From: Gammaproteobacteria bacterium
GTDB taxonomy: Bacteria; Pseudomonadota; Gammaproteobacteria; Eutrophobiales; Eutrophobiaceae
Direction: 5' to 3'
Assembly: GCA_965215365.1 (NCBI GenBank)
Contig: CBDCDS010000003.1
Location: forward strand, 1,664,001-1,728,000
Length of the DNA stretch: 64,000 nucleotides
Positions 8,938 through 40,313 of the stretch are shown piece by piece. The notes below the pieces were generated by a model, which worked only from the letters and a program-made list of their open reading frames with translations, ran no database searches and was not told the origin of the DNA. How positions within the stretch are numbered: position 1 is the stretch's first letter; every line of letters begins with the position of its first letter. A program made the translations under genes and the position numbers.

Positions 8938-8974
8938 CATGGATGCCCCACAAGAATCAAAAAAGCCTGTCCGG

Positions 8975-9137
8975 TGCAGCAGATTGGTCGAGGGCGACCT
9001 GCTATCGCTGGTTGAAGCGGTATCGTGAATGTGGGCTGAGGGGTCTGGGGACTGCCTCTCGTGCGCCGCGACGGCGGCGTGTGCGGCAGCGGGCACGCCA
9101 GCACGAGCAGCAGCAGGTCTTGCACCTGCGCCAATGC
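8975..9137 (+). pseudogene. IS481-family transposase HTH fragment
   Basis: SRATCYRWLKRYRECGLRGLG..SRAPRRRRV matches the ORF at 39436-40227. Confidence 0.85.
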
Positions 9138-9180
9138 TCTGCTAGACTGACCGCTCTTGTGTAACCTGTCAAGGAGCGCT

Positions 9181-10458
9181 ATGACCACATCGTTCCCGCA
9201 TGATTTCAGTGACGAACGCTACACCGAGGCACTGTTGGGCCTGTTCAAGCCCGGCACCGGCGTGGCCCCGCCCAAGCTCGCCGGGCGCGGTGATGAGACG
9301 AAGGTCTTTGAGCGCCAGCTGTTGATCGACTTGCGCAAGGGATGCGGCCCGGCAGGGGACTTGGTGCTCTTCGGGCCGCGCGGTAACGGCAAGACGGTGT
9401 TGCTCACTGATCTCAGTCGCCGCGCCGCTGAGCGTCAGATTGACGTGGTCACGCTGACTCCTGATGAGATCGATTCCCCGCTGCAGCTAATCAGAAACTT
9501 ATTGCAGCGTCCGCCGTCGACACTGGCGTCGGGCGGGCTCTGGCTCGGGCGCTTGTTGAGGCGGCGCGCACCGCGCACACAGAAGGCCTCGGCGGCGAGC
9601 TTACGCGTGGGAGCGGGCGATCTCAGCGCGGAGCTCAGTGCTGAGCTCAGCGTTGTCTCAGACGATGAGCTCAGGGTGTATGGTGAGGCCAAGCTGACTG
9701 CGCGTTGTCGCGCACAACCGCTGTTGGTCACCGTGGACGAAGCCCATACGCTCGATATCGAGACCGGGCGCCGGCTGCTGAACCTCAGCCAGCAGCTGCG
9801 CACGGCCGATGTCCCGTTCGTCCTCATCTTGGCCGGCACGCCTAATCTTGAAGCGCATCTGGGTAAGATGAGCGCCACCTTCTGGGATCGCTCTGAGATC
9901 CTGCCGATCGGCCGGCTGAGCGCTAAGGCCACGGCCGAGGCTTTAACGACTCCGCTGGCCCAATGGTCGGTGGCTTTCGAGCCGGACGCCTTGGCGGCGG
10001 TGGTGGATGACTCACAGTGTTATCCGTATTTCATTCAGCTTTGGGGGCGGGCGTTGTGTGGCGCCTTGGTCGAGCAAGGGGGGGGGCACACAGTGACCTT
10101 GGGTCTCGTCAAGCAGGCTGCCCCACAGGTCGCGGCACGGCGCCTGCGTTATTATGGGAGGCGATATCTGGAGCTCGAAGATCGTGGCTTGCTCGAGACC
10201 GCGTCGCTCGTCGCCGGCTGTTTCGAGAAGTCCGAGCAGGTGGCCAGGGCGACGCTCAAGGCGGCGTTGGGCGAGGGGCTCGGGTCAGACGCCGAGGCCG
10301 CCATGGCGGTGCTCGGCCAACTCGCCGACTTAGGCTACACCTGGGCGCCTGACGGCGGTCGGGAGATCGAGCCGGGTATTCCGTCGCTGATGAGTCATGT
10401 GCGCGAGGCGGTCGCTGAGGAGGCGATGGATTTTCCAGAACCGCCACCGCGGCCTTAA
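9181..10458 (+). CDS. P-loop AAA ATPase (AAA_16/ATPase_2-like) with probable C-terminal winged helix
   Basis: PGTGVAPPKLAGR, Walker A GPRGNGKT, Walker B LVTVDEAH, ILAGTP, CYPYFIQLWG; RBS AAGGAG. Confidence 0.85.
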   Translation: MTTSFPHDFSDERYTEALLGLFKPGTGVAPPKLAGRGDETKVFERQLLIDLRKGCGPAGDLVLFGPRGNGKTVLLTDLSRRAAERQIDVVTLTPDEIDSPLQLIRNLLQRPPSTLASGGLWLGRLLRRRAPRTQKASAASLRVGAGDLSAELSAELSVVSDDELRVYGEAKLTARCRAQPLLVTVDEAHTLDIETGRRLLNLSQQLRTADVPFVLILAGTPNLEAHLGKMSATFWDRSEILPIGRLSAKATAEALTTPLAQWSVAFEPDALAAVVDDSQCYPYFIQLWGRALCGALVEQGGGHTVTLGLVKQAAPQVAARRLRYYGRRYLELEDRGLLETASLVAGCFEKSEQVARATLKAALGEGLGSDAEAAMAVLGQLADLGYTWAPDGGREIEPGIPSLMSHVREAVAEEAMDFPEPPPRP

Positions 10459-10592
10459 CCCGCAGATATCACCAAGTCGCTTGTTGCCTTGTGCAACATG
10501 ATTGCTCTCAATAAGTTATGGTAACCTCTAAGCCTTCATGATCAACCCCTCACACAGCACAGTCTCATAGGCATTGAACCTGAACAAAAGTC

Positions 10593-10621
10593 TTGACTGT
10601 AGAGTGGAATTGTGTTAAAGT
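10593..10621 (+). promoter_or_regulatory. Sigma70 promoter TTGACT-17-TAAAGT
   Basis: -35 at 10593-10598, -10 at 10616-10621; GAGGAG RBS downstream. Confidence 0.65.
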
Positions 10622-10673
10622 TGCGATGTCGTTCAGCTTCTATACAATCACCCGTTTACTGAGGAGAACGAGA

Positions 10674-11235
10674 ATGAAAATGAAACTTACGGTTACCCCC
10701 CCCCCCCCCCCCCCCCACACGCCCTAGCCGCCTGACGGCACCGGCCACCCTGCTGGTGGCCCTGATGCTGGGACTGGCCGGCACCCTGCCGATGACAACA
10801 TATGCGCAGGTTAATCTGTGCCCGAATGGATTGCTTCAGTTGAATAACATCTATATGACCGTAACCGTGGGTCAGAACCGAGGGTCGACATACAACCCGG
10901 ACACAGCCCAGTTTACGACCGACACGACAAAACATTCGGCCACGGTTACGGTCAGAGAAGAGCAGGCGAATCTCCTTATCACCGGCCGGGGGTACACCTC
11001 TGGCCAATTCCGTTTTGGGATGCAGGGCGAAGGCGAGGCCCTTCTCCACCACGGCGTCATGTGGTCCGCCGGGCGCCTTCACAATGGTCAGTTGTCGGGG
11101 ATTGACATTCCGATCTCTTTCCATAACCTGGAGCCGGGCACAAAGTACGCTGTGGAACTTCTTGTAGAGAATACCAATCTCCACCCTGAGCGGCGCCTAC
11201 TATTCCGGAACTGTTTCCAGACGCCCGCGCCCTGA
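10674..11235 (+). CDS. Putative secreted protein with poly-C tract in the signal N-region, out of frame as assembled
   Basis: ATG 10674, C21 at 10696-10716, TAG 10725; removing one C gives MKMKLTVTPPPPPPTRPSRLTAPATLLVALMLGLAGTLPMTTYA-QVNLCPNG joined to ORF 10756-11235. Confidence 0.7.
10696..10716 (+). repeat. C21 homopolymer
   Basis: Direct count. Confidence 0.95.
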
Positions 11236-11329
11236 CCCCACGCCCTTCCTGCTGCTAGCGACTATGCTGGCACCTGCGGCGGTGACGGCGCAGATGGTTG
11301 GAGGCAGTGTCTGCCCGTCAGGCACGTTT

Positions 11330-11455
11330 GGTCACCTCTCACAAACACGAGGTGACCGTGCAGCACAAGGATGTGCTGCCAGTAACTGCAAGCACGTAAG
11401 TGCTTGAAAATGAAGGAAATGAAAAATCATACTTTTTCATTATCTCTGAGAGACA
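11330..11455. mobile_element. Partial copy of the 151-bp MITE
   Basis: ggtcacctctcacaaacacgaggtgacc, gcagcacaaggatgtgctgc, aagcacgtaagtgcttgaaaatgaaggaaatgaaaaatcatac match 57490-57640. Confidence 0.8.
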
Positions 11456-12115: not shown

Positions 12116-13110
12116 TGGCACTGGCCGCCGGTCAGGCTCACCGGGCGATACGACTGTGCCGGTCTTGCGGCCGGTTGCCGGGACGTTTGTCAGCGTATCT
12201 TTGTATGACGCTTGCGCTGGTGTGTTTGTTAGCGACGTTCCCGCTGCGGGCGACCGGGTCTTTTACCCTGGCGCAGCCAGTTGACTCGGTGGTCGGCGCC
12301 ATTCGCACTGTTACCGCCCGGCACGAAGACACGCTCCCGGACCTTGCCAGGGCGCATGGCCTGGGTTTCCAGGAAATTAAACTGGCCAACCCGGAGGTGG
12401 ACACCTGGTTGCCAGGGCAGGGCGCCGGGATTGTGCTGCCGACCTGGTATGTGCTGCCCGAGCCGCCCCATGTCGGCCTCGTGCTGAACATACCGGAAAT
12501 GCGCCTGTATTATTTTCCCGCCCAGGAACCGGACCAGGTGGTCACTCATCCGATCGGGGTAGGGCGCCAGGGTTGGGTTACCCCGTATCTCAATACCCGG
12601 ATTATCGAAAAGAAAACCCGTCCTTACTGGTATCCGCCCGCATCAATCCGCAAGGAACACGCCGAGCAGGGTGACCCGCTGCCGACACGGGTGCCGCCGG
12701 GGCCGGATAACCCTCTGGGAGACTATGCGCTGAGATTAGGCTTGCCCGAGTATATTATTCACGGCACCAACAAGCCCTACGGTATCGGCCTGCGGGTCAG
12801 CCATGGTTGCATCCGTTTATACCCGGAAGATATAGCCAGCCTGTACCAGCGGGTGGCGCTGTACACGCCGGTGCGCATCATCAACCAGCCCTACAAAGTC
12901 GGCCGGCGCGGCAATAAACTGTACTTAGAAGCCCATCCCTACCTGGAGGAAGATGCGGCGCAGTTCCAGGGTAGCCTGACCAGCGTGGTTAAAAGCCTGA
13001 TAAAAATTACCGGTGAGGACGCCTACGAGATAGACTGGAAACTGGCACAATCCGCCATCGACCAACGCGACGGCATTCCGGTTGCGATCGGCAGGTTAGT
13101 GGATAATTAA
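12115..13110 (+). CDS. L,D-transpeptidase (ErfK/YbiS/YcfS family)
   Basis: ANPEVDTWLP, PPGPDNPLG, IHGTNKPYGIGLRVSHGCIRLYPEDI; TGATG coupling to moaB. Confidence 0.93.
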   Translation: MALAAGQAHRAIRLCRSCGRLPGRLSAYLCMTLALVCLLATFPLRATGSFTLAQPVDSVVGAIRTVTARHEDTLPDLARAHGLGFQEIKLANPEVDTWLPGQGAGIVLPTWYVLPEPPHVGLVLNIPEMRLYYFPAQEPDQVVTHPIGVGRQGWVTPYLNTRIIEKKTRPYWYPPASIRKEHAEQGDPLPTRVPPGPDNPLGDYALRLGLPEYIIHGTNKPYGIGLRVSHGCIRLYPEDIASLYQRVALYTPVRIINQPYKVGRRGNKLYLEAHPYLEEDAAQFQGSLTSVVKSLIKITGEDAYEIDWKLAQSAIDQRDGIPVAIGRLVDN

Positions 13111-13166
13111 CCCGCAGCCTGACCCAATCCGGCGCGATCTTCGCATCACTTGGTGAGAGCTGCGGG
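13111..13166. mobile_element. 56-bp MITE (CCCGCAG...CTGCGGG) with TTAA duplication
   Basis: TTAA|CCCGCAG...CTGCGGG|TTAA; other 56-bp copies at 14880-14935 and 29632-29687. Confidence 0.8.
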
Positions 13167-13170
13167 TTAA

Positions 13171-13245
13171 GGGTGCCATCTGAAAATTAGAGATGCCTAT
13201 GCAGCACAGGGACGTGCTGCCATTTTTAATCATGCGAGTGATTCC
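13171..13245. mobile_element. Degenerate end of the 151-bp MITE
   Basis: gggtgccatctgaaaattagagatgcctatgcagcacagggacgtgctgccatttttaa resembles 57490-57548. Confidence 0.7.
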
Positions 13246-14879: not shown

Positions 14880-14935
14880 CCCGCAGATCTCACCCGGTGA
14901 TGCGAAGATCGCGCCGGATTGGTGCTGCCTGCGGG
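14880..14935. mobile_element. 56-bp MITE copy
   Basis: cccgcagatctcacccggtgatgcgaagatcgcgccggatt...ctgcggg. Confidence 0.75.
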
Positions 14936-15301
14936 CTATCGTCCCATTCTGCCGGACGGTCGCTGGTAGCGATGTTCATGATGGCTGTCGACAAACTCCA
15001 ACAAAGACTGCTCCAGTCCGCTCATCGGGTTGGCCTCACAATAATCATCTATCCAGACCATAATCTCATCTAAGCTCAGGTTGCCGGAGATACTGTAGGT
15101 GTCCGGGACCATGGCGTTATAGGCGGTTAAATACCCCATAATGTAGGTCCGGTAAGGGTCTTTGCCATCGGTAGTGCGCTCCTTGAGATAGCGGTAGCAG
15201 GACTTCTGTCCTGCCCCCCAGATCGCATAGTTGCCTGACTTGTCCATGCCCTGGGCCGGCAGCCACAAGGCCGCGCTCAACGCGCAGCAGACAATCCGCA
15301 T
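14936..15301 (-). CDS. Small secreted hypothetical protein (two Cys in mature part)
   Basis: Signal peptide, GQKSC...YIMGYLTAYN...WIDDYCEANP; GAGG RBS. Confidence 0.75.
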   Translation of the reverse strand: MRIVCCALSAALWLPAQGMDKSGNYAIWGAGQKSCYRYLKERTTDGKDPYRTYIMGYLTAYNAMVPDTYSISGNLSLDEIMVWIDDYCEANPMSGLEQSLLEFVDSHHEHRYQRPSGRMGR

Positions 15302-28586: not shown

Positions 28587-28683
28587 GACCGATCAGGCGG
28601 CGCTGGATTACTGGCAGCGGCGCCTGCGCATCTGGTACAGCTTTAACCCCGACTACCGCCACCACCTGCATCCGCACCGCTAG
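28437..28683 (+). pseudogene. 5'-truncated small secreted-protein gene fragment
   Basis: LLTLPVVALA-HEPLWVP... signal-like stretch lacking a start, fused out of frame to the giant gene. Confidence 0.35.
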
Positions 28684-28719
28684 ACCGCCCTGTCTTATTC
28701 GTTGTTCTTCCCATGGCGC

Positions 28720-29455: not shown

Positions 29456-29497
29456 GTTCTACGGCCACCCTGGGCTCTACCTCACTTCCCAAGACAC

Positions 29498-29527
29498 AGT
29501 ATAGAACAATTCATACCAGGAGATCAA
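29498..29527 (-). promoter_or_regulatory. Sigma70-like promoter TTGATC-18-TATACT
   Basis: -35 at 29527-29522, -10 at 29503-29498; 6 bp from IS end. Confidence 0.45.
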
Positions 29528-29631
29528 CCATGATGTTCAGGTTCAATGCCTATGAGACTGTGCTGTGTGAGTGGTTGATTATGCTCCGTCTGCAAATGAA
29601 CAAGCACCGCCTTCCGGCGCTCAGAGGTTAA

Positions 29632-29687
29632 CCCGCATATCTCACCAAGTGATGCGAAGATCGCACCGGATTTTTTACGCCTGCGGG
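29632..29687. mobile_element. 56-bp MITE copy inside the IS derivative
   Basis: ttaa|cccgcatatctcaccaagtgatgcgaagatcgcaccggatt...ctgcggg. Confidence 0.75.
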
Positions 29688-29786
29688 TGCCTGCGAACGA
29701 AAGCATAGCGGTAGCTGAGGTTACCATAACTTATTGAGAGAAATCATGTTTCACAAGGCAACAAGCGACTTGGTGATATCTGCGGG

Positions 29787-31048
29787 TTAAGGCCGCGGTG
29801 GCGGTTCTGGAAAATCCATCGCCTCCTCAGCGACCGCCTCGCGCACATGACTCATCAGCGACGGAATACCCGGCTCGATCTCCCGACCGCCGTCAGGCGC
29901 CCAGGTGTAGCCTAAGTCGGCGAGTTGGCCGAGCACCGCCATGGCGGCCTCGGCGTCTGACCCGAGCCCCTCGCCCAACGCCGCCTTGAGCGTCGCCCTG
30001 GCCACCTGCTCGGACTTCTCGAAACATCCGGCGACGAGCGACGCGGTCTCGAGCAAGCCACGATCTTCGAGCTCCAGATATCGCCTCCCATAATAACGCA
30101 GGCGCCGTGCCGCGACCTGTGGGGCAGCCTGCTCGACGAGACCCAAGGTCACTGTGTGGCCCCCCCTTGCTCGACCAAGGCGCCACACAACGCCCGCCCC
30201 CAAAGCTGAATGAAATACGGATAACACTGTGAGTCATCCACCACCGCCGCCAAGGCGTCCGGCTCGAAAGCCACCGACCATTGGGCCAGCGGAGTCGTTA
30301 AAGCCTCGGCCGTGGCCTTAGCGCTCAGCCGGCCGATCGGCAGGATCTCAGAGCGATCCCAGAAGGTGGCGCTCATCTTACCCAGATGCGCTTCAAGATT
30401 AGGCGTGCCGGCCAAGATGAGGACGAACGGGACATCGGCCGTGCGCAGCTGCTGGCTGAGGTTCAGCAGCCGGCGCCCGGTCTCGATATCGAGCGTATGG
30501 GCTTCGTCCACGGTGACCAACAGCGGTTGTGCGCGACAACGCGCAGTCAGCTTGGCCTCACCATACACCCTGAGCTCATCGTCTGAGACAACGCTGAGCT
30601 CAGCACTGAGCTCCGCGCTGAGATCGCCCGCTCCCACGCGTAAGCTCGCCGCCGAGGCCTTCTGTGTGCGCGGTGCGCGCCGCCTCAACAAGCGCCCGAG
30701 CCAGAGCCCGCCCGACGCCAGTGTCGACGGCGGACGCTGCAATAAGTTTCTGATTAGCTGCAGCGGGGAATCGATCTCATCAGGAGTCAGCGTGACCACG
30801 TCAATCTGACGCTCAGCGGCGCGGCGACTGAGATCAGTGAGCAACACCGTCTTGCCGTTACCGCGCGGCCCGAAGAGCACCAAGTCCCCTGCCGGGCCGC
30901 ATCCCTTGCGCAAGTCGATCAACAGCTGGCGCTCAAAGACCTTCGTCTCATCACCGCGCCCGGCGAGCTTGGGCGGGGCCACGCCGGTGCCGGGCTTGAA
31001 CAGGCCCAACAGCGCCTCGGTGTAGCGTTCGTCACTGAAATCATGCGG
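29787..31048 (-). pseudogene. Near-identical AAA-ATPase copy lacking the native start and frameshifted near 30160
   Basis: Reverse complement matches 9196-10458; G7CC vs G9C gives a 1-nt deletion. Confidence 0.9.
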
Positions 31049-31053
31049 ACACC

Positions 31054-31245
31054 ATGAAATCAAACGACACGCACCTGGAGCAGGCCATCGAGAGGCTGAA
31101 GTCTCAGATGGAAACGCAGCAACGGTACATAGATGATTTAGAACTGCGACTGACTAACCTGACCGTTGACCTCTATGGGCATCTGGCCAAATGGAAAACT
31201 GGCCAGCGAAACAAAGATGTAGGCCGACGGCAGGACTCTCGATGA
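31054..31245 (+). CDS. 63-aa coiled-coil hypothetical protein, separated from its RBS by the IS derivative
   Basis: ATG lies in the CCATGA duplication; AGGAG at 29518-29522 is 7 nt upstream in the reconstructed empty site. Confidence 0.6.
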   Translation: MKSNDTHLEQAIERLKSQMETQQRYIDDLELRLTNLTVDLYGHLAKWKTGQRNKDVGRRQDSR

Positions 31246-31455
31246 ACATATCACTGATTTTTTGAACGAGCGTCGATGACGACTAAAACAGAACTCGATG
31301 TCAGCGTCGAGCAAGAGGATGTCATCCTCACACTCCGGGTGCGCTGGCCGGCCGCCTCGTTCCTGGCTATCGCACGTCAGGTGCACGAGGTACTGCACCC
31401 GGTGCGCACCATCCGGCCAGAGCGCCCGCCCATTGAGCATCAGGACAGCGATTAG

Positions 31456-31911
31456 TCAATCGCCCGTTGCAGGTGCCGTCGGATAATGTCTCCGATCTCG
31501 TTTCGAGCGTTGACCCGACCGACCACGTGCCGTCCGGGCAACCACCGAAAAACTGCCGAACTCGCCGCGCCTTGCACCCTCCTGGTGAGTGGACGCATAC
31601 GGCACATCAGTCCCCACCACCACACTGCGACGGTCATAAGCCGTAGTGATACTGCGCTTTAGCCGGCCAGATAAAACCAACGGGTTGTTGGCCGGCTTGC
31701 TCCGCTTGAGCCGCCGAGCCTGTGTGGCCTTCGATAACGCAGCCCACGCGCTGCCATCCGGCGCCCGCTTGGTGTTAAACCTGTTTTCCGTCGATGTCGC
31801 CAGAAGACCAGCCACCTCCTGCATCGCCGGCGACATATCATCCGCAGCATCACGCAACTGCCGCAACGCCCGCCTCACGTCACTATCACTGAGAGATATT
31901 CGTATGTTCAT
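31456..31911 (-). CDS. Phage virion morphogenesis protein (Mu gpG-like)
   Basis: MSPAMQEVAG..STENRF..APDGSAWAALS..LVLSGRLKRSI..VVGTDVPYASTHQEG; C-terminus looks degenerate. Confidence 0.85.
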   Translation of the reverse strand: MNIRISLSDSDVRRALRQLRDAADDMSPAMQEVAGLLATSTENRFNTKRAPDGSAWAALSKATQARRLKRSKPANNPLVLSGRLKRSITTAYDRRSVVVGTDVPYASTHQEGARRGEFGSFSVVARTARGRSGQRSKRDRRHYPTAPATGD

Positions 31912-32061
31912 GGCTCTCTAATATTTGTCCCGTATTCCCCCGCAATATCCCGCATTTTTCCGTCAACACTTTGTTGATTTTCCCCCGCTTCAAAAACCCC
32001 ATACCAGCCCCGTGCAACATTTATCGCATGAATCAGAGATAATTTATCGCATGATTCTACA

Positions 32062-34378
32062 CACGACCCTCACGGCCACGACCGACAGTACCGATGAGCC
32101 GTATAACACCGAGGCCGTGGTCATCGAATTAGGCACGCCGCCCGCCGGCACCAACAAGGGCAGTCCCGCCGAGGTGACCGTCACCCTCATTGACAACAAC
32201 CCCACCACCGTGACGCTAGCTGCCACCGCCGGGGATATCACCGAAGGCGCCACCAAGACCTTCACCGTCACCTCAGCGCGCGCCCTAGTCGCCGGCGAGG
32301 TGCTGCCGGTGCCGCTGACCTTCACCGGTACGGCCACCCGCAACACCGACTACACCGTAGCTTGTCCGGACACCCTGCCCACCGGGGTGAGCTGTAACAA
32401 CCTCAATACTGCCGCCACCCCCACCGTGACCTTCACCGGCCCGGCTGCTATGGCCGTGACCGTCACGCTGACGAGCACCACGGACAATACCACCGAGAGC
32501 GGCGGTGAGACCGTGGATATTGGTTTGGGCACACTCAATGCCAGCTCCGGCACGAACTTAGGCGGCGGTGCTGCCGGCACGGACAACTTAGACACCTTCA
32601 CTATCAATGACCCGCCCGCCGCCGGCGCGCTGCCCTTAACATTAGCCGCCATCGCCACGGACAATACCATCAACCTCGCCGAGAGGGCCGCCGGCTTTGC
32701 TATTAGTGGCACCACCGGCAGCGAGGCCGGCGTGGCGGTGACGGTGACGGTGACTGCCAGTAAGAACGGGCTCACTGCCGCCGCAGTGACCCGCGCCCTC
32801 ACGGTTGATCTCAGCGCACCCACGGCACCCACCTACACCGCGCCGGATACGCTGACGGTGGAAGATGCCGCCGGCAACCCGGCTGAGACCACGATTGATT
32901 TCCCGGCGGTGGACGCGGAAATAATCAGGGTTGTTGGAGGAGGCGAAGACGTTGCTGTGACGGTTGTTGAAATGTCGACAGCCGTTGAACTGGAGGCTAT
33001 GGCGCCGACATCCGAGGCCGTGCGTCGGCAGGTGTCACCTTCGGAAGATGTCGTGTTTGCGGTGTCTCCTGTAGTGATAGAGCAGGTGGGTGACAGGCAG
33101 CTTGCCGAGGGTGAGGGGAGGTTTACGTTCTGTCTGCCGCGCGGCTCGGTTCCTGCCGGTTATACGGCGGTGATTTACCTTGCCAGCGGGGGTGATGGCA
33201 GTGAATCTTCGCATTGGGTGGCATTGCCCAATCAACAAGATGAGCCATTGCGGCAACGGGTGTGTGCGACCGTGTCAGGGTTTTCCATGTTTCGGGTGGG
33301 TTATGATGCACAAGCCGCACAAGATGAGGTGTTGGGCGTATTATCGATAAGCAGTGCCAGTGTGCGCGAGTTTGTCGGTGCACTGTTCTTCGATGTCAGG
33401 TTGAACAAGCCGGCGGCGCAGGTGGTGACGGTGGCTTATGCCACACAGGCGGGTACGGCCACGCGCGAGGTGGACTATAAGCATACGTCAGGTACACTGA
33501 GGTTCGAGGTGGGTGAGACGCACAAGCAGGTTAAGGTGAATATATTGGACGATGATGTGGTTGAGGGGATTGAGTACTTCGAGCTGGTGCTGAGCGCCCC
33601 GGTTAATGCCAGCTTGGCGCAAGCTGTGGCGACCGGCACGATTGTTGACGATGATCGCGTGCGTCTGTTCCTTCGTCATGCCAGTGCCGCTGAGGGCGCC
33701 GGCGAGATGATTTTCAGGATGGAGCTTGAGCCGTGGAGTGAAGAGCAGGTGACGGTGGACTATACAACTGTTGATCGCGCGGCACTGGCGGGCGTTGATT
33801 ACACTGCGGTCGCCGGCACGCTTACATTTGCACCGGGGCAGCGGCGCAAGGTGCTGCGGGTGCCGCTGATTGATGATGCGGTGCATGAAGACACGGAGTC
33901 GTTCACGGTGCAGTTCAGCAATCTGGTCAATGCTGAGTTCGAGCGGCTCAAGGCGGTTAATGGTTGGGTGTATGATGACGATGTGCGCGCCATCAGGGTG
34001 TCCCCGTCGATGATGCAGATGAGCGAAGGGTCAACGGAGCGTTGCACGATAGTGCTGGCCACGCAGCCCACGGGTGAGGTGACGCTGGAATTGACTACGA
34101 ATAACCGAGCTGTACAGTTGTCGCCGGCGCGACTGACTTTCGATGCGAGCAACTGGTCACGTCCGCAGCAGGTGACGGTAACGGTGCCGGCAGATACGAA
34201 TATGTTCGATGACGAGGCGCTGTTGACGTACAAGGCACGCGGCGCTGACTACGAGGCGATGCAGGGAGAGACGATATTGTACATTGAAGATATGAACCGC
34301 CCTGATAATGACGGGTTGCGCGATACGGCGCCGATCATATATCCTGACAGCCCGTTCACTCCGTTGGGTAACTTCTGA
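32062..34378 (+). pseudogene. C-terminal part of a Calx-beta/Ig adhesin without native start, with internal deletions
   Basis: Module TTVTLAATAGDITEG..DYTVACPDTLPTGVSC is homologous to about 26815-27230; two Calx-beta domains (GTATREVDY, AALAGVDY); ORF 31925-34378 opens in unrelated sequence. Confidence 0.75.
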
Positions 34379-34426
34379 CGTGATGCTTTCTTCGCATCAC
34401 TTGGTGAGATCTGCGGGTTAAAGCAG

Positions 34427-34530
34427 ATGCGATTTGAAGAGGCTTATTGTGGTTGGACGGAACGACTCTTGAAGCAGGAGGAACTGGCGCAGTTATTGGG
34501 TGTGTGCGCCCGGACCTTCCAGCATTACAT
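34427..34530 (+). pseudogene. ISNCY/IS1202-like transposase N-terminal fragment
   Basis: MRFEEAYCGWTERLLKQEELAQLLGVCARTF HTH start. Confidence 0.65.
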
Positions 34531-34555
34531 GGCCGGTATGTTGTTCGGAGTTTGC

Positions 34556-35110
34556 TTAGGCCGCAAGGGTTTCGATGACATCGCCCTTGCGTTGCAGTAC
34601 GGTCACGCCCTGCGCCAGGGCCGCCTGCTTCAGCGCGTCATGGAAGTGGAAGGCGGCCAGCGCCAAGCGCTGCCGGCGGTCGGCATGTTCCGGGAATAAG
34701 CGCCGGAAGTTGGGCGCTTTCTGGTCCAGCAAGCGCGCCAAGTCGTTCTCATGTGCCTTGTACTTCACTTCCACGACAAACACTTCGCGACCGTTCACTA
34801 ACAGCAGGTCAAACTCGTCCTCAAGGCCGGCGCGGCTGCGGGTGATGTTCCGGTCGACGAAGTCGAAGCGCACCCCGGCCAGCACCGGATTGGCCTTGAG
34901 GCTGTTGTGATAGAACTCCTCAGCCGCCGCCCCCAGGCTGTTGCCAACGCCGCCATACATTTCCGCCAGACGGTTCAGCTTGGCCTCGGTCTTCGCCTGC
35001 TGGACAGCGTTTTTCGCCAGCTGGGCATCAGTCCTCGCCAGCTGGGCATCAGTACGGTCTTGCGCGACGGCCAAGCCGGCAACCAGCGCTTTCAGTTCCT
35101 CATCAGTCAT
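34556..35110 (-). CDS. Coiled-coil plus PD-(D/E)XK-like domain protein (DUF3782-like)
   Basis: Heptads RTDAQLA x2 (21-bp repeat); AAEEFY, EFDLLLVNG, VVEVK. Confidence 0.75.
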   Translation of the reverse strand: MTDEELKALVAGLAVAQDRTDAQLARTDAQLAKNAVQQAKTEAKLNRLAEMYGGVGNSLGAAAEEFYHNSLKANPVLAGVRFDFVDRNITRSRAGLEDEFDLLLVNGREVFVVEVKYKAHENDLARLLDQKAPNFRRLFPEHADRRQRLALAAFHFHDALKQAALAQGVTVLQRKGDVIETLAA

Positions 35111-35139
35111 GGCAAAACCCTCTCAACGAAGCGGCGGCT

Positions 35140-35271
35140 CAGTACATCCTGTCGGCGTTCGCGCCGGCATTGATGGCGCCAACAACAGGCTTTCCTGACA
35201 TCGGGCTGCTGCACCCTGTCCCCTGCCTGCGCCGCGCACGGTTTACCACCGGTTTCTATCACTGCATACAT
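35140..35271 (-). pseudogene. rplU: Decayed ribosomal protein L21 relic
   Basis: MYAVIETGGK(PCAAQA)GDRV, then GKPVVGA-INA in another frame. Confidence 0.6.
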
Positions 35272-35341
35272 AGCCCTTACATCTGTTAACAGCTCAGGAG
35301 AGACATTCTATATCACTCAGGTTTGAAATAAAAAGGCCCGG

Positions 35342-35917
35342 CTACTGCCTGTGGAACGGCATCTTGCGCCCGGAAAACCGGGTTTTCAGGAATTCCATCT
35401 GGTCGGCCAGTATTTTCCTGTTGGACAGAGCCAGATACTCGGCCCAGTTGGGCACGTAAGGCACTGCCAGCAATGACATCTTCGCCTCGTCGGGAGTCTT
35501 GTTGCCCTTGCGGGTATTGCAGGAACGGCAGGCGGTGACGACATTGGACCAGCGGTCCTTGCCCCCGCGTGAGATGGGAATGACATGATCGCGGGTCAGG
35601 GCGCCGCCGCGGCCGCTGTTGTTGCCGCAATACATGCAGATATGGGCGTCGCGTAGAAACAGCTCGCGGTTGGTCAACGGCGGCACGTTACGGTACACAT
35701 GCTTGTGATTGCGCGAATGCTTGATGGCAATAATGGAGTTGATCGAGATGCTGGAACGCAGCCCGGTCAACCTGCAGTTGCCGCCATGGAACGTGAACGT
35801 TTCATCGCCGGCGGTCCAGCCCACCATGTCGCGGCAATACAGACTCACCGCGTCCTGCCAGGGGATCCAGGTCACCGGCATACCGGAAATATCAAGTCGC
35901 AAGATAAGTGGTTTCAT
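35342..35917 (-). CDS. HNH endonuclease
   Basis: LFLRDAHICMYCG, LTRDHVIPISRGG, NVVTACRSCNTRKG. Confidence 0.92.
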   Translation of the reverse strand: MKPLILRLDISGMPVTWIPWQDAVSLYCRDMVGWTAGDETFTFHGGNCRLTGLRSSISINSIIAIKHSRNHKHVYRNVPPLTNRELFLRDAHICMYCGNNSGRGGALTRDHVIPISRGGKDRWSNVVTACRSCNTRKGNKTPDEAKMSLLAVPYVPNWAEYLALSNRKILADQMEFLKTRFSGRKMPFHRQ

Positions 35918-36057
35918 GTGTTAATCTAGTACTACAGTCGATTTTTGTATCAACCCCGGCGGGTCCTCGTAACGCAGACCTAAGGCCGCCTCTAAAAATG
36001 CCACGGAGGGTATTTTTACAGGTTCCCATAACAATAGCTCGCAAAAATTACCGGAAT

Positions 36058-36870
36058 ATGAAGATATTACAGGCAATGCAGGAACTGATCAACATCATGG
36101 CGGCCTTGCGCGACCCGGATACGGGCTGCCCCTGGGATCGGGAGCAGACCCTGCAATCCATTGTTCCCCATACCCTGGAGGAAGTCTATGAACTGGTGGA
36201 TGCCATTGAGCATGGCAGTATGGAAGATCTTCGGGATGAGTTGGGTGATTTGCTGTTCCACGTCGTGTTCTATGCGCACCTGGCCATGGAGACCGGCGCC
36301 TTCGACTTTGCGGAGGTGGCAGCGGGGGTCTGCGCGAAGCTCAGGCGTCGGCATCCTCACGTTTTTGCCGGGCAGCAGGTAGCTTCAAGTGCAGAGGTAC
36401 AGCGTAACTGGGAGCAGCTCAAGCGGGAGGAGAACGGCGCCCGGCAGTCAGGCATGTATCTGGATAATATCGCCCGCGCGCTGCCGGCAGCGCTGCGCGC
36501 AGAGAAATTACAAAAGCGCGCCGCCACAGTCGGTTTCGACTGGGCTGAGTCCGGCCCGGTGCTGGCCAGGCTGGAAGAAGAAATCGGTGAACTGAAACAG
36601 GCCATGATCGAAGCGCAAGGAAGCGCCCGCCTGCACGCCGAACTGGGCGATGTGCTGTTTGCCACCGTCAACCTTGCCAGACATCTTGAGTTAAGCTCTG
36701 AAACCGCACTGCGCGCAGCCAACACCAGGTTTGAACAGCGTTTTCACTACATTCAGGCGACCCTAGAGGCGGCCGGGGAAGACCTGGACAGCGCCTCTTT
36801 GGAACGCATGGAGGAACTATGGGAGGAAGCGAAACAGGCTGAAGATCAAGGCAAGCTGGGGCTTACTTAA
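36058..36870 (+). CDS. mazG: Nucleoside triphosphate pyrophosphohydrolase
   Basis: LRDPDTGCPWDREQT, EEVYE, DELGDLL, RRHPHVF, GFDW, ELGDVLF. Confidence 0.95.
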   Translation: MKILQAMQELINIMAALRDPDTGCPWDREQTLQSIVPHTLEEVYELVDAIEHGSMEDLRDELGDLLFHVVFYAHLAMETGAFDFAEVAAGVCAKLRRRHPHVFAGQQVASSAEVQRNWEQLKREENGARQSGMYLDNIARALPAALRAEKLQKRAATVGFDWAESGPVLARLEEEIGELKQAMIEAQGSARLHAELGDVLFATVNLARHLELSSETALRAANTRFEQRFHYIQATLEAAGEDLDSASLERMEELWEEAKQAEDQGKLGLT

Positions 36871-37048
36871 AGTACCTTATCAATTACGCCCAGTGCAATC
36901 AGGATGCTGACGCCAACGACCAGCATATTCAATTTAGTGTCTATGCGTTCCAGACGACGCCCCAATCATTGAGCTCGTCCGAGGCTTTTATAGCCTTGTC
37001 TTCGGTTGCGCCAGCGTCGACTAGCACTCTGTACAGTGCGGTTGTCAT
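36867..37048 (-). pseudogene. About 60-aa coiled-coil plus TM protein, 1 nt short at a G run near 36961
   Basis: MTTALYRVLVDAGATEDKAIKASDELNDWG / RRLERIDTKLNMLVVGVSILIALGVIDKVL*. Confidence 0.6.
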
Positions 37049-37065
37049 GCTGGCAGTATAGCATA

Positions 37066-37956
37066 TTAATTCTCTCTTTCCACAATATAACGCGCAAGCT
37101 CACGTAGCGTCCCGGCTTCGGCGCCGAAATCCGCCAGATTCTCCAGGGCCTCGTCCAACGCCTGACGCGCGGCGCGTTTTGCGCCCTCCAGTCCCAGCAG
37201 GCTGGGATAGGTAGCCTTGTTGCGCTCCAGGTCGGAGCCCTGCGGTTTGCCCAGGGTTTCGGTGTCGCTTTCAATGTCGAGCACATCGTCATGAATTTGA
37301 AAAGCCAGACCGATGCATTGCGCGTAACGGGACACCCGTTCAAAGCGCTGCTCAGCCACCGGCGTCGAACAGAGTGCGCCCAGCTCAACGCTGGCCCGGA
37401 TCAGCGCGCCGGTTTTGTACGCATGCATGGTTTGCAGTTCTGCTAGGGTCAGCCCCCTGTTTTCGGCTTCCAGATCGATGGCCTGGCCACCGGCCATGCC
37501 CAGCGACCCGGCAGCATGCGCCAGCACGCCGAGCATCCGTAACCGCTGTGCGGGAGGAACCGGTATGGCAGTATCCTGCGCCAGCGCCTGGAACGCCAGC
37601 GCTTGCAGGGCGTCGCCGGCGAGGATGGCCGTGGCCTCGCCGTAAGCCTTATGGCAGGTAGGGCGCCCGCGTCGCAGGTTGTCATCATCCATCGCTGGCA
37701 GGTCATCGTGGATGAGTGAATAGGTATGGATCATTTCCACCGCACAAGCACAGGCATCGAGGGCTGCCGGTTCGACCTTGAAGGCCTCGCCACCGGCATA
37801 GACCAGCACCGGCCTGATACGTTTGCCGCCGGCGAAAACCGCATAGCGGATGGCTTCATGCAGGGATTTGGGCGCTACCGTTGACGCCGGTATCCAGCGC
37901 TCTAGGGTGGCGTTGACCCGGGCCTGATAGTCAGACAGTTTTTCGGCAAAGGTCAA
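37066..37956 (-). CDS. ispA: Farnesyl diphosphate synthase
   Basis: GGKRIRP, LIHDDLPAMDDDNLRRG, GQAID, FQIHDDVLD. Confidence 0.95.
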   Translation of the reverse strand: MTFAEKLSDYQARVNATLERWIPASTVAPKSLHEAIRYAVFAGGKRIRPVLVYAGGEAFKVEPAALDACACAVEMIHTYSLIHDDLPAMDDDNLRRGRPTCHKAYGEATAILAGDALQALAFQALAQDTAIPVPPAQRLRMLGVLAHAAGSLGMAGGQAIDLEAENRGLTLAELQTMHAYKTGALIRASVELGALCSTPVAEQRFERVSRYAQCIGLAFQIHDDVLDIESDTETLGKPQGSDLERNKATYPSLLGLEGAKRAARQALDEALENLADFGAEAGTLRELARYIVEREN

Positions 37957-37972
37957 GGGCGACTATCCCCAT

Positions 37973-38221
37973 TCATAGTTCTTGCGCGCGTTCCGGCGCA
38001 AATCCGGCCAGTTCCCCGCTGTCATTATCCTGAGTCAAAATTCGCACTTTCTGCTCGGCCGCCGCCAGGGCTTGCTGGCAGCTGCGGGTCAGGCTGACGC
38101 CGCGCTCGAACTGTTGCAGGGATTCTTCTAGGGTCAGGTCGCCTTTCTCCATGGTTTCGACCAGCTGCTCCAGTTCCGCCAGCGCTTTTTCAAAATCGAT
38201 TTCAGGTTTGGTATCGGACAC
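37973..38221 (-). CDS. xseB: Exodeoxyribonuclease VII small subunit
   Basis: FEKALAELEQLVETME..LEESLQQFERG; upstream of ispA. Confidence 0.95.
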   Translation of the reverse strand: MSDTKPEIDFEKALAELEQLVETMEKGDLTLEESLQQFERGVSLTRSCQQALAAAEQKVRILTQDNDSGELAGFAPERAQEL

Positions 38222-38334
38222 AAGCCGGCCTCCGGTGAATAATGGCTTCGATTGTACCGCACATTTACCGTCCAGGTAAAAATCCGGTGTATTCCCTAAT
38301 CGACAATTAGAAATCGGTATAAATAGAAAAATCC

Positions 38335-38400
38335 TGTCCGGGTTCAGAGCAGCACCTCCCTGTGCTGCACGGGTGCCTCATGTTTGTGAGAGGCACCCGT
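38335..38400. mobile_element. Isolated 14-bp IS481 left end followed by a MITE fragment
   Basis: TGTCCGGGTTCAGA is the exact reverse complement of 40268-40281; then gcagcacctccctgtgctgcacgggtgcctc..gaggcaccc. Confidence 0.75.
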
Positions 38401-38434
38401 TAGTTTATTGGCCAGCTGTGCGGCCCGCACTCGG

Positions 38435-39068
38435 CTACTGGTTCCCTCCGAGAAGCTCACCCGCCAGACCGACCCTCGCGCAGCCCCTGCCGCCCATGAA
38501 CAGGAAGTAGGCGCTGCCAGTTTCCGTCCATTGGCGGGTGTTTACGGGCGGGCTGAAGACCGGCACCACCATCTCACCGGGGCCTTGATTGGGATTGTTG
38601 GCATTGCGGTTGGTCCAGATGCGGGCACCGGCCTTGGGGCGCACCTCGATGATGTTCTCGCCAAGCACACCGCCGGAGAAATTGATACTCCTATTCCCAT
38701 CCGGGTTGCGCCACTGGTTGTTGCCGATCGCCGCAGTCCGCCACTCCCAGTCGCTGAAAGTGGAGCCGAAATCGTTTGCTGAGGTAATGAATCCTATGTT
38801 GATGTTGAAGCTTTGCCGCGTCACGCTGGAATTGGTGGACGACAGGATCAGCTTCATGCGGCCGGGCGTGGCGTGGTCACCGCAGCCGTCCACAACTTGC
38901 GAAACCGATGCAAGCGAGACGGTGCAGATGCTGCCGGTGCAAGTAGGAGGCGTTTGCGCCTGCGCCGGTCCTGCAAGCAGCAGGAAGCAGAGCATCGCGG
39001 CGGCGGGCGCCGCGAGGGCCGTCAGTCTAGTGGGGGGGGGGGGGGGGTAAAAGTGTATCTCGTTTCAT
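38435..39068 (-). CDS. Putative secreted protein with poly-C tract in the signal N-region, out of frame as assembled
   Basis: AGGAG RBS, ATG 39068, C16 (G16 at 39032-39047), TAG 39027; C15 gives MKRDTLLPPPPPTRLTALAAPAAAMLCFLLLAGPAQA-QTPPTC joined to ORF 38435-38995. Confidence 0.72.
39032..39047 (-). repeat. C16 homopolymer (G16 on + strand)
   Basis: Direct count. Confidence 0.95.
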
Positions 39069-39111
39069 TGTCTGTCTCCTGATGGTTGAGTAAAACAACT
39101 CATCGGCACCG

Positions 39112-39140
39112 ATTATACTATAATGGTCAGGAAAAGTCAA
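39112..39140 (-). promoter_or_regulatory. Near-consensus sigma70 promoter TTGACT-17-TATAAT
   Basis: -35 at 39140-39135, -10 at 39117-39112. Confidence 0.8.
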
Positions 39141-39146
39141 AAAAAC

Positions 39147-40281
39147 TGTCCAGGTTCAATACATATGAGACTCAGAGGCAGGCTGTGTGAGTTGTTGATA
39201 ATACTCCATTGGGGTTAATAAACCCATACCGTCATGCGGCCGGTAGGTATTGTAGTATTGCTGATACTCGGCCAGTTTGCGGTTGATGGCGGCCACGGTC
39301 AGTGGACCCTCGTAGAACGGATAGAACTCATAGCGGCTGGTGGCATTGGCGCGTTCTACACAGCCGTTGTATTCGGGTTTTTTCGGGGGCAGCACGTACA
39401 GGGGGATTCCTAAGTCCTGGCAAGCCTGCTCGAACTCATCTTAAGAACTCCGAGCCGCCATCGACTTGGATAGAACGGATGGGAAACGGCGCCTCACCGA
39501 GCAGCGCCTTTAAGAAGCGCCGGGCATTGCCACTGGTGGCCCGACTGTAGGCTCGCAGCGCACTCCATTTGCTCACCGGACAGACGGCCTTGAACTCCTT
39601 CACCGTGACGCCGTCCGTGAAGCCGACACTCATGTGGTCTATCTGCATCAACTCCCCCGGCGCCTTAGCCTTCATCCCGTAGCGCCAGCGCTTGGCATGA
39701 TGGGTAAACGCCCGGCGGCGCTTAGGCTTCACCCGGCCATAGTAAAACGCCACCGGCTTGACCCGACCTAGCCGCACCCGCTTCGCCACGATGCGCCCGA
39801 CCGTACTCTCGCTCAAAGTCCAGCCCTGCTCGCGCACCCCCACCCGCCAGAGCTTACGCTTGCCCCATAACGGATAACGTTGGCGAAGGTGCAAGACCTG
39901 CTGCTCGTGCTGGCGCGTCCATTGCGGCACACGCCGCCGCCGCGGCGCACGAGAGCCACACCCCAGACCCTTCAGCCCATGTTCACGATACCGCTTCAAC
40001 CAACGGTAGTAGGTCGCCCTCGACCCACCTACTGCTGCCAGTGCCGTCGCCTCACCACACCCATCCTCGCGTAACGTCGCAACTAATTCCAACTGCTGCA
40101 AACGACCGAGCGCGTCAGCATCGGTAGTATCATCGACGCGCCAACTGCGATATGATTTCACCCGCTTACCTTTTGATCTGCATCGGGTAGTCCTCCTGTG
40201 TAAGTTAATCGAAATCACTTTACACACTTAACTACCCGATTTCTTTATCTAAAGAGTCTCACTTGTTTCTGAACCCGGACA
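39147..40281 (-). mobile_element. IS481-family insertion sequence (1135 bp)
   Basis: TGT..ACA imperfect IRs TGTCCAGGTTCAATACATATGAGACTC / TGTCCGGGTTCAGAAACAAGTGAGACTC; flanks do not form a duplication. Confidence 0.88.
39156..40227 (-). pseudogene. IS481-family DDE transposase with +1 frameshift near 39440
   Basis: HTH, PGELMQID, IQVDGGSEF, then (shifted) LPPKKPEYNGCVER..YNTYRPH. Confidence 0.88.
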
Positions 40282-40285
40282 GAAG

Positions 40286-40313
40286 TTGACACCGGTGCGG
40301 GAATGAGTAGAAT
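40286..40313 (+). promoter_or_regulatory. Sigma70 promoter TTGACA-16-TAGAAT of the rubrerythrin operon
   Basis: 4 bp outside the IS left end. Confidence 0.6.

Follow-up and report, generated by a model that had tools for sequence, protein, structure and literature searches.

The window, the whole stretch of 64,000 nucleotides analysed, contains three related elements whose right ends border promoter-like sequences (Table 1). All three right-end junctions, at 10586, 29534 (minus) and 39147 (minus), read ACA, six nucleotides and TTGA, exactly as described in an earlier note on this DNA. The note had taken the elements for three copies of one insertion sequence (IS). This holds for the element at 39147-40281 (copy 3), whereas those at 8968-10586 and 29534-31056 (copies 1 and 2) are ATPase-carrying derivatives that combine an AAA-ATPase gene and a 70-bp repeat with an IS fragment and a right end of 50 bp. 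The transposase frame of copy 3 is broken by one TGA and one TAA, its longest open stretch being 263 aa, and the ATPase frame of copy 2 is split. The right end of copy 2 (29534-29583) is 96% complementary to that of copy 1, with which it shares the tip ...CTGAACA. That the six nucleotides are the target duplication at two sites was borne out only for copy 1, and there imperfectly (AAAGCC at 8962-8967 versus AAAGTC); no duplication flanks copy 3, and in copy 2 the left end is missing.

The predicted promoter at the right end of copy 3 (offset 6, score 17.9) is followed by a gene on the minus strand that starts near 39071, translates as MKRDTLLPPPPPH and stops after a homopolymer tract. Downstream of the copy 1 promoter, an ATG at 10675 precedes a C tract; the reading frame 10675-10727 translates as ...MKMKLTVTPPPPPPHTP and is in frame with a TTG-start ORF (10593-10727). 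The site beside copy 2 (offset 6, score 13.0) faces a convergent gene (28583-29455, Phage_Mu_F), whose 3' end lies 78 bp away, and may serve no gene. The sequence TTGACA-16-TAGAAT, which the earlier note placed 4 bp beyond the left end (40281), is indeed present at the coordinates in Table 1 and precedes a rubrerythrin gene (40360-40776; PF02915, 105 bits). It is the sole exception to the rule, described below, that promoters border right ends.

Table 1. Elements in the window and predicted promoters at their ends.
Feature	Coordinates	Strand	Remarks
Derivative element, copy 1	8968..10586	+	flanks AAAGCC / AAAGTC
Copy 1, left tip (7 bp)	8968-8974	+	TGTCCGG
Copy 1, internal IS fragment	8976-9134		matches IS positions about 245-400 at 87%
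Copy 1, AAA_22/AAA_16 ATPase gene	9181-10458		AAA_22 40 bits, AAA_16 32.2 bits
Copy 1, genome-wide repeat (70 bp)	10455-10524		
Copy 1, right end (50 bp)	10537-10586		
Copy 1, right-end promoter	10587..10621	+	aaagtc; -35 TTGACT 10593-10598; 17 bp; -10 TAAAGT 10616-10621
Derivative element, copy 2, left-truncated	29534..31056	-	about 1340 bp match copy 1 at 99-100% identity
Copy 2, right-end promoter-like site	29498..29533	-	tcatgg; TTGATC 29522-29527; 18 bp; TATACT 29498-29503
IS copy 3, full-length but decayed (1135 bp)	39147..40281	-	identity to the 25 other full copies 97-100%
Copy 3, inverted repeats	IRR about 39147-39174; IRL about 40254-40281		TGT...ACA, from sequence
Copy 3, right-end promoter	39112..39146	-	gttttt 39141-39146; -35 TTGACT 39135-39140; 17 bp; -10 TATAAT 39112-39117
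Rubrerythrin gene promoter, 4 bp from copy 3 left end (40281)	40282..40313	+	TTGACA 40286-40291; 16 bp; TAGAAT 40308-40313

The 2.73-Mb genome holds 26 full copies (8 identical) of the IS481-like IS of 1132 bp, along with many remnants. The IS is bounded by TGT...ACA inverted repeats; the left end reads TGTCCGGGTTCAG... and the right end ...TTGAACCTGGACA. All 8 identical copies, which are the youngest, carry an intact 348-codon frame. The single 341-aa frame per 1132-bp element encodes a DDE transposase with the triad D182, D241 and E276. Its best NCBIfam model is IS481 (NF033577), matched over the whole profile (2-284) at 180.6 bits; because this lies under the 224-bit cutoff, the assignment to the IS481 family made in the earlier note is only roughly right. 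The second-best model is IS3 (87.7 bits). The ISNCY_2 model, which we take to be that of the IS1202/ISAba32 group, matched residues 46-189 only, at 36.4 bits. Searches of Pfam returned HTH_32, rve_3, rve and a weak LZ_Tnp_IS481, and no Mutator or IS256-type family was found in Pfam or NCBIfam at E up to 0.01. In the AlphaFold model, N-terminal helix-turn-helix domains precede an RNase H-like core. The TGT...ACA termini, the single ORF and the length of about 1 kb are traits of the IS481 family as far as the available part of the source describes it (PMC10045372). In our preferred explanation, this is an active IS with one DDE transposase of the IS481/IS3 (retroviral-integrase-like) kind.

An N-terminal peptide of the transposase, MQIKSLRIKSYRSW, is conserved in 34/34 aligned members of the clade; Q2 and Y11 are invariant, and S5, L6 and R7 occur in 90% or more. 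It lies outside the IS481 profile and is predicted to be disordered (pLDDT below 50). Of five other IS481-like transposases inspected, only L006 (48% identical) has even a partial form, with MQIENL at its start; the other four lack it.

Promoters were called throughout by a weight matrix with approximate frequencies based on E. coli work; the calls are predictions backed by no experiment or RNA data. Gene context comes from our own crude gene finder, by which the genome is about 88% coding. The best sigma70-like promoter begins 5-7 bp past the terminal ACA (offsets 4-6) and points outward in 37 of the 44 unique right-end flanks, as against 4 of the 42 left-end flanks, so the fixed-distance, oriented arrangement observed in the window holds genome-wide. 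Promoter scores of at least 8 bits at offsets 4-7 were obtained for 35/44 right flanks, 1/42 left flanks and 0.65% of 20000 random genome positions, so the excess is well beyond chance, and all 8 identical copies fit the pattern (scores 8.3-12.1). When each box was scanned singly, a -35 box was found at offset 5-6 in 32/44 and a -10 box at 28-30 in 27/44 right flanks. A target duplication of 4-6 bp abuts the -35 hexamer in 18 of the 26 full copies (5 bp in 11, 6 bp in 5, 4 bp in 2); by our own reading of the list, CTAG is absent from all 18. The junctions are intergenic in 43/44 cases (12% of random positions), and in 36 of those 43 the first gene beyond reads in the outward direction (55% of random intergenic positions). 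Convergent genes end opposite 7/43 intergenic junctions, including that at 29534 in the window; targets thus need not all be working promoters. The rule is not met at 7/44 junctions of this genome; some misfits overall are nested or decayed copies, and others are unexplained. No such clustering at promoters was seen for other repeat families of the same genome or for two other IS481-like ISs in sibling genomes, in small numbers in both cases.

The rule extends to relatives of the IS. It is met by 40/54 flanks in 13 other genomes whose transposases are 45-88% identical (14/54 misfit) and by 37/53 flanks in metagenome contigs (16/53 misfit); an offset of 4-6 combined with a score of 6 or more was found in 30/53 metagenome flanks and at 17/1200 random positions of the same loci. 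The hosts differ greatly in base composition, and many are, according to record titles, uncultured bacteria, marine and sponge-associated; the clade is large, with 2908 homologues at E up to 1e-10. We show here that promoter targeting is a trait of the whole clade.

Overall, an active IS inserting at sigma70-type promoters is in our view the probable explanation, and we are highly confident that insertion is promoter-targeted and oriented. The promoter might instead travel with the IS, either as the element's own outward or hybrid promoter or as a flank mobilised with the right end: at both window loci compared, the IS is absent from the sister genome G006 and so are the promoter and gene beside it, which means that these two sites are not simple insertions, and copy-out-paste-in ISs usually have outward -35 boxes in their right ends, as far as can be judged from the accessible portion of the source (bioRxiv 10.1101/2022.12.17.520857). 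The hexamers nevertheless lie outside the duplication, and their sequence, spacer and downstream gene vary from site to site, while the duplication, in the 18 copies that have it, immediately flanks the 1132-bp unit on either side. Furthermore, G006 contains two empty sites with a promoter and no IS, one with a single CAAT followed by GGTGATA-17-TAGAAT and the other with a single CAAGA followed by TTGACA, and it also has the rubrerythrin promoter without the IS. At the empty sites the promoters therefore predate insertion and belong to the target, as had been claimed for the hexamers in the window, and a travelling promoter is hardly tenable. We give equally little credence to survivorship alone, that is, near-random insertion with persistence only where an IS is harmless, just upstream of promoters. 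Random insertions into such a densely coding genome would mostly break genes, and the junctions are almost all intergenic; however, selection could not set a distance of 5-6 bp and a single orientation, because sites further upstream are equally harmless. The youngest copies already fit, left ends seldom do, other repeat families are unclustered, and the rule recurs in hosts of very different base composition.

A further alternative is that the transposase reads the DNA directly, recognising a -35-like hexamer (TTGACA resembles its own right tip, TGGACA), with promoters being incidental. The earlier note had stated that TTGA without an enriched -10 would indicate a plain sequence preference, and this test was run: in 32/44 sites the -10 score ranked among the highest 10% of controls with a matching -35 score (620326 intergenic positions as controls; binomial p 6e-23), at spacers of 16-18 bp. 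That the enrichment survives matching argues for a bipartite promoter as the target, rather than a mere TTGA motif. The enrichment is strongest at sites with a weak -35 (13/14 in the top 10%), and poor hexamers such as TCCACC, GTGCCG and TGGGTA have a good -10 in register nonetheless. Direct read-out would account for TTG being the strongest signal in the unanchored logo, with T at +7 in 23/26 full copies, and for a ruler that is set from the -35 and not the -10, as inferred from an offset of 5 or 6 in 33/37 sites irrespective of spacer length. The right tip reads ...CCTGGACA, and after insertion TGGACA, the duplication and TTGACA form direct repeats, but the target hexamer, as read from sequence, lies on the other side of the cut than in the IS end. 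A defined DNA target with the same geometry is also on record for the ISAba32 group, within the part of the report available (bioRxiv 10.1101/2022.12.17.520857). Taken together, we consider direct read-out unlikely as the explanation, although the end-binding domain may to some extent read the -35 itself, given the likeness of TGGACA to TTGACA.

For an IS that inserts at promoters, we lean slightly towards recognition via bound RNA polymerase over direct DNA read-out; this is inferred, and no contact with RNA polymerase has been shown. The holoenzyme on the promoter is the likely object recognised because all that the sites share is a degenerate bipartite -35/-10 pattern whose spacer varies within the 16-18 bp that sigma70 tolerates, and because weak -35 boxes are accompanied by good -10 boxes. 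The geometry, unlike the recognition, is shown by the data: the staggered cut of 4-6 bp borders the -35 hexamer on its upstream side, at about -41 to -36 from the transcription start, with the right inverted repeat, at the 3' end of the transposase gene, turned toward the promoter. The core promoter and the gene are kept intact and all sequence upstream of the -35 is exchanged for the IS, which can thus spread in an 88%-coding genome while hardly breaking genes. The transposase might touch sigma region 4 or an adjacent subunit, at the position occupied by class II activators; it might also respond to the DNA bend that RNA polymerase makes at that place. The clade-specific peptide MQIKSLRIKSYRSW is a candidate handle. 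We propose, tentatively and with somewhat more doubt than belief, that in this IS481-like clade the holoenzyme at promoters is the target-selection factor and the short, disordered N-terminal peptide docks the transpososome at the class II activator position (sigma region 4 or its neighbour), with strand transfer exactly at the upstream edge of the -35.

The IS offers a second system for studying how a transposase reads promoters, and as an intact natural copy is present, experiments need no gene repair. Its insertion sites are a free promoter map; if the holoenzyme reading is true, each insertion marks an active sigma70 promoter in unculturable organisms. By replacing the DNA in front of dozens of promoters, such an IS could alter regulation in reduced symbiont genomes through loss of activator and UP sites while sparing the genes. 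Precise insertion of cargo at -36 in a single orientation could also serve as a promoter trap or insulator-delivery tool.

In the literature searched, promoter-directed insertion in bacteria was found only for Mutator-like TnGBS/ISLre2/ISKra4 elements, and the accessible sections of one paper call this specificity of a single Mutator-like lineage "unique" or "atypical" (PMC3942029). According to those sections, TnGBS ICEs and members of the ISLre2 family (p-MULT 3) and of the ISKra4 group (p-MULT 4) leave 13-17 bp between their insertion point and the -35 downstream of it, in agreement with the longer distance cited for ISLre2/TnGBS in the earlier note, and their orientation is linked to the asymmetry of the two inverted repeats (Guerillot et al. 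2014, PMC3942029). The present IS shares the single orientation at promoters (37/44 right versus 4/42 left ends). Within the same limits of the source, it differs in its transposase, which is IS481/IS3-like (rve, rve_3, HTH_32) where theirs is Mutator-like and kin of IS256, in its distance of 4-6 bp with the duplication abutting the hexamer, and in its candidate signature, the N-terminal peptide, where theirs lies between domains N1 and N2. The resemblance is thus convergent: promoter targeting evolved at least twice, here in a transposase of unrelated fold and with another, sharper geometry.

Another relevant comparison is with the IS1202 family, in particular its ISAba32 subgroup (Siguier et al. 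2022, bioRxiv 10.1101/2022.12.17.520857), whose transposases are, to the extent that the source could be consulted, distant kin of IS481/IS3. Its insertions are likewise oriented, with direct repeats of 5-6 bp, an end-to-site distance equal to the repeat length (5 bp) and a duplication abutting the site; whether it contacts a bound protein or recognises the architecture of the site is left open there. Its IRL, however, faces a XerCD recombination site, whereas in the present IS the IRR faces a promoter, and the flanks contain no conserved 28-bp site as at XerCD. With canonical IS481 and ISRe46, as described in the parts available of PMC3053399, PMC6794481 and PMC10045372, the IS shares the TGT...ACA termini, a single DDE transposase, a length of about 1-1.1 kb and a duplication around 6 bp, the size made by most family members. 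Their target NCTAGN is typical but not family-defining; the present IS differs in lacking CTAG in its 18 duplications, in scoring below the curated cutoff and in its extra N-terminal peptide.

The model for the inferred mechanism is Ty3, whose integrase works together with TFIIIB/TFIIIC where RNA polymerase III starts transcription (cited in PMC3942029; see also PMC6673722). Ty3 is a eukaryotic retrotransposon, and no comparable contact has been shown for the present IS; what the two would have in common is an integrase-fold enzyme set at a fixed distance from the transcription start by the initiation machinery. If the holoenzyme reading is true, the IS represents a second independent case of promoter tethering in bacteria and the bacterial counterpart of Ty3 with TFIIIB.

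The genome under study (2.73 Mb, three contigs, 58% G+C) contains 26 full-length copies of the insertion sequence (IS), 97–100% identical to the copy in the window and comprising 16 distinct sequences, as well as about 40 fragments and solo ends, all located by BLAST. The left end of the IS is TGTCCGGGTTCAGAAACAAGTGAGACTC and its right end ...GAGTCTCATATGTATTGAACCTGGACA. Eight copies are identical, with a length of 1132 bp and a 348-codon open frame; with the start set from relatives at the ATG of MQIKSLRV..., the transposase has 341 amino acids. One intact natural copy occupies C3 1528595-1529726. The window copy is decayed, with stops inside the transposase frame. The best NCBIfam model for the protein was IS481 (180.6 bits, whole profile covered, cutoff of 224 not reached), followed by IS3 (87.7 bits), and its Pfam domains are HTH_32, rve_3 and rve. 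An alignment of 34 clade members placed the DDE triad at D182, D241 and E276, and the AlphaFold model (mean pLDDT 82) shows an RNase H-like core and N-terminal helical DNA-binding domains. From what is known of the family, we infer that a DDE enzyme moves the IS, probably by copy-out-paste-in, the route thought to apply to IS481 (PMC6794481).

At position 2622110 of contig C3, which also carries the window, one IS copy is inserted in another at a promoter-like GTATCA-18-TATGAT. The site lies in the 5' portion of the transposase gene, in antisense direction, and could serve the IS as an antisense promoter. A circle-junction promoter using the TTGAAC of the right end was considered and dropped, because no -10 box could be seen by eye in the left end.

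When the window sequence was re-read, its three right-end junctions read as the earlier note had described them, with TTGA following six variable bases. The note had counted three copies of the IS; only one is the plain element, and the other two are derivatives carrying an ATPase gene. Likewise, of the target duplications it had proposed at two sites, only that of derivative copy 1 could be found within the window (AAAGCC versus AAAGTC).

Features of the window discussed in the text (window coordinates)
Feature	Position	Strand	Description
Plain IS copy	39147-40281	minus	1135 bp; TGT...ACA ends; imperfect terminal inverted repeats
Derivative copy 1	8968-10586	plus	Five pieces: 7-bp left tip, 159-bp internal IS fragment, P-loop ATPase gene, 70-bp repeat, 50-bp right end
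Derivative copy 2	29534-31056	minus	Left-truncated duplicate of the 8968-10586 element, 99-100% identical
ATPase paralogues	9181-10458; 29717-31056		
Counterpart of GTATCA-18-TATGAT site	about 40125-40170		
~70-bp repeat	10455-10524		110 copies in the genome; REP- or MITE-like look
Palindromic repeats	13108-13243; 14880-14938; 29628-29688		Related to the ~70-bp repeat
Further short-repeat set	11390-11441; 46211-46368; 57488-57644		
C-tract genes	10693-10716; 39032-39047		Frame broken beyond a C tract
Phage_Mu_F gene	28583-29455		Domain score 73 bits; 78 bp between its end and the solo right end (29534)
Long open frame	16131-28586		4151 codons; internal direct repeats of ~3.4 kb, 72-89% identical
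Tandem array	61903-62055		21-bp unit GTTTATCTACGTCGCCGAATC, about 6-7 copies

The right ends of the two derivatives align, are 96% complementary and share the ...CTGAACA tip. Copy 2 adjoins a promoter-like site unlike that of copy 1, showing that the derivative itself moved. The encoded ATPase matches AAA_22/AAA_16 (Pfam), and searches with PADLOC and NCBIfam yielded marginal matches only. It is not proposed to act in transposition, and it is missing from the plain 1132-bp copies. The gene has 13 paralogues with 69–100% nucleotide identity (besides those in the window, at 265-271, 585-587 and 1317-1320 kb of C3, among others). Several lie directly 3' of IS left-end fragments; in one case IS positions 1-439 plus the ATPase gene are repeated three times in tandem. 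The gene may be a passenger of the IS or may insert into it.

For a genome-wide analysis, all BLAST matches reaching the right or left IS tip were collected, and the unique flanks (44 right, 42 left) were scored with a simple -35/-10 weight matrix at spacers of 15–19 bp. The position frequencies of the matrix are approximate values after E. coli compilations. In 37 of the 44 right flanks the best predicted promoter within the first 40 bp was found at offset 4, 5 or 6 (offset 5 in 17, offset 6 in 16), which means that the -35 hexamer starts 5–7 bp past the terminal ACA; the predicted promoters are directed away from the IS. Reading the left flanks outward gave such offsets in 4/42 only, the remainder being scattered. 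The fixed distance and orientation claimed for three junctions thus hold across the genome. At offsets 4–7, 35/44 right flanks scored at least 8 bits; only one of the 42 left flanks did so, and the rate among 20000 random positions was 0.65%. The pattern also appeared in an unanchored logo of the full copies, with T at +7 in 23/26 and a second peak of T and A at +29/+30, and in single-box scans (-35 at offset 5-6 in 32/44, -10 at 28-30 in 27/44). All eight identical, and hence youngest, copies obey the rule. No offset clustering was seen in control sets, namely the 2285-, 1895-, 1403- and 4100-bp repeat families of this genome and two other IS481-like elements in sibling genomes, which offer only 1–11 flanks each.

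Preference for a TTGA motif alone was an alternative that the earlier note had itself proposed to recognize by a lack of -10 enrichment. For each site, the best -35 at offsets 4–6 was taken as the anchor, and the best -10 was scored at spacers of 16–18 bp; all 620326 intergenic non-IS positions, treated alike and matched on -35 score, served as controls. The -10 score fell within the top 10% of the matched controls at 32/44 sites (binomial p 6e-23) and within the top 5% at 27/44; among sites with a weak -35 (0–4 bits), 13/14 reached the top 10%. Because the -10 box is enriched beyond what the -35 score accounts for, the target is a bipartite promoter. Its distance to the IS is fixed from the -35 (offset 5 or 6 in 33 of the 37 good sites), unlike the -10 position, which shifts with spacer length.

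We found a direct repeat of 4–6 bp on either side of 18 of the 26 full copies (5 bp in 11, 6 bp in 5, 4 bp in 2); it reaches the hexamer in nearly all cases, as in CAAGA|TTGACA, TAGCGC|TTGAAT and CGGGG|TTGTCA. The promoter-proximal cut therefore falls at the upstream edge of the -35 box and the other cut 4–6 bp farther upstream. Upstream of the duplication we saw no conspicuous motif, and CTAG was present in none of the 18 duplications; it is the core of NCTAGN, given as the target of IS481 and ISRe46 (PMC3053399, PMC6794481). Tandem right-end remnants a few bp apart lie upstream of one promoter (C3 584756-584861; locus L034) and match the expected leftover of repeated insertion at one promoter followed by deletion. 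Tandem insertions at one site have been reported for ISAba32 too.

Gene context, taken from a crude home-made gene finder, placed 43/44 junctions in intergenic DNA, compared with 12% of random positions. The next outward gene is codirectional in 36/43 (against 55% of random intergenic positions), and such a gene starts within 300 bp in 31 (against 39%). The sister genome G006, which belongs to the same genus, has flanking genes 85–94% identical and no transposase match in the search made; it provided clean empty sites at two of eight further IS loci compared. Opposite the IS at C3 1603130-1604261 it reads ...GAGTTCAA CAAT GGTGATA-17-TAGAAT, with a single CAAT, and opposite that at 2121023-2122154 it reads ...CTGATA CAAGA TTGACA..., with a single CAAGA. 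At a third locus (L233/L240) the IS is absent and the intergenic DNA could not be aligned; in the remaining five, repeats, a second IS or larger indels complicated the comparison. At the two window loci examined in this way, the IS and its neighbouring gene are both missing from the sister genome; the rubrerythrin promoter beside the window IS copy is present there. Among the public sequencing runs listed for this DNA, none is recorded as RNA. Logan contigs of four public runs break at the IS, and within window positions 28600-42500 none joins across it; we conclude nothing from them. Insertion is oriented, and the duplication abuts the -35 box of promoters that existed beforehand.

The genes behind two of the three window target promoters start with MK..., followed by a C tract of 16–21 nt (also at C3 2482531-2482546 and elsewhere); in the whole genome, 15 tracts of G or C reach at least 11 nt. 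Either these are contingency genes subject to phase variation, or the tracts are homopolymer errors from long-read assembly. A paralogue at C3 2482569 likewise has a solo IS right end upstream. The Phage_Mu_F gene near 29534 indicates prophage-like DNA close by. A second abundant element of ~2285 bp (~16 copies; C3 222968-225251 and 15 other places; ends GTAACTACTCGCCCCC...) and the smaller families of ~1895, 1403 and 4100 bp showed no promoter adjacency.

Related loci were found in other genomes (67 loci, transposases 39–88% identical), mostly of sponge-associated or marine Gammaproteobacteria according to record titles, and share the right end ...TCTCAYAKGTAYTGAACCNNGACA. The 56 loci reaching the gene 3' end, all 45–88% identical, yielded 54 unique right flanks from 13 genomes; the best promoter lay at offset 4–6 in 40 of them and at offset 5 in 32, and one extra locus, misplaced by the regular expression, fits on inspection. 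Scanning metagenome contigs with the right-end motif identified 60 loci, from which 53 unique flanks could be used, in hosts from AT-rich through GC-rich. Here 37/53 had the best promoter at offset 4–6 (offset 5 in 30), and 30/53 combined such an offset with a score of at least 6, versus 17/1200 random positions from the same loci. Overall, 114 of 151 junctions fit. With an E threshold of 1e-10, a protein search returned 2908 homologues, the best 120 of which are nearly all unnamed.

What is recognized is probably a promoter occupied by sigma70 holoenzyme. We infer this from the target pattern, since the sites share only a degenerate two-box pattern with the spacer tolerance of sigma70 and a good -10 offsets a poor -35. 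A contribution of direct -35 read-out cannot be excluded, as the right tip TGGACA resembles TTGACA. The cut region, roughly -41 to -36, is the seat of class II activators, which touch sigma region 4. The N-terminal peptide MQIKSLRIKSYRSW is a candidate handle for recognition, for which there are no contact data. All 34 aligned clade members, down to 51% identity, conserve this peptide; it falls outside the IS481 profile, whose start is at about residue 30, and the AlphaFold model predicts it to be disordered. Four of five other IS481-like transposases examined lack it; the fifth, at related locus L006 (48% identical), has a partial MQIENL, and its flank carries TTGCTT at offset 5 with no -10 in register. 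Thermales plasmid relatives (41–43% identical) are without the N-terminal motif, and the only right end placed among them had no promoter at +5 to +7, a single case from which no conclusion is drawn. Complex prediction with alignments of the transposase and of RpoD region 4 gave no answer (a score of zero) and is evidence neither way.

Promoter targeting by this IS is strongly supported as real and, as far as searched, undescribed: we found no report of it for IS481-type elements in the literature searched, which did not extend to ISfinder/TnPedia or paywalled reviews. Large surveys, in the sections available, describe IS481-family elements as often near coding sequences and orientation-biased, with no promoter-distance rule given there (PMC13548323, PMC9208149). 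TnGBS, ISLre2 and the ISKra4 group are known to show promoter-directed insertion; they are Mutator-like elements and insert 13–17 bp upstream of the -35 box. In the case of TnGBS, Guerillot et al. suggested contact with an initiation-complex subunit, drawing an analogy to Ty3 (PMC3942029 for both points). The present transposase has another fold and inserts at another distance, and the likeness is therefore convergent. The geometry has a parallel in the ISAba32 subgroup of IS1202, distant kin of IS481/IS3 that target XerCD sites: it resembles the present IS in oriented insertion and in a 5–6 bp duplication abutting the recognized site (bioRxiv 10.1101/2022.12.17.520857).
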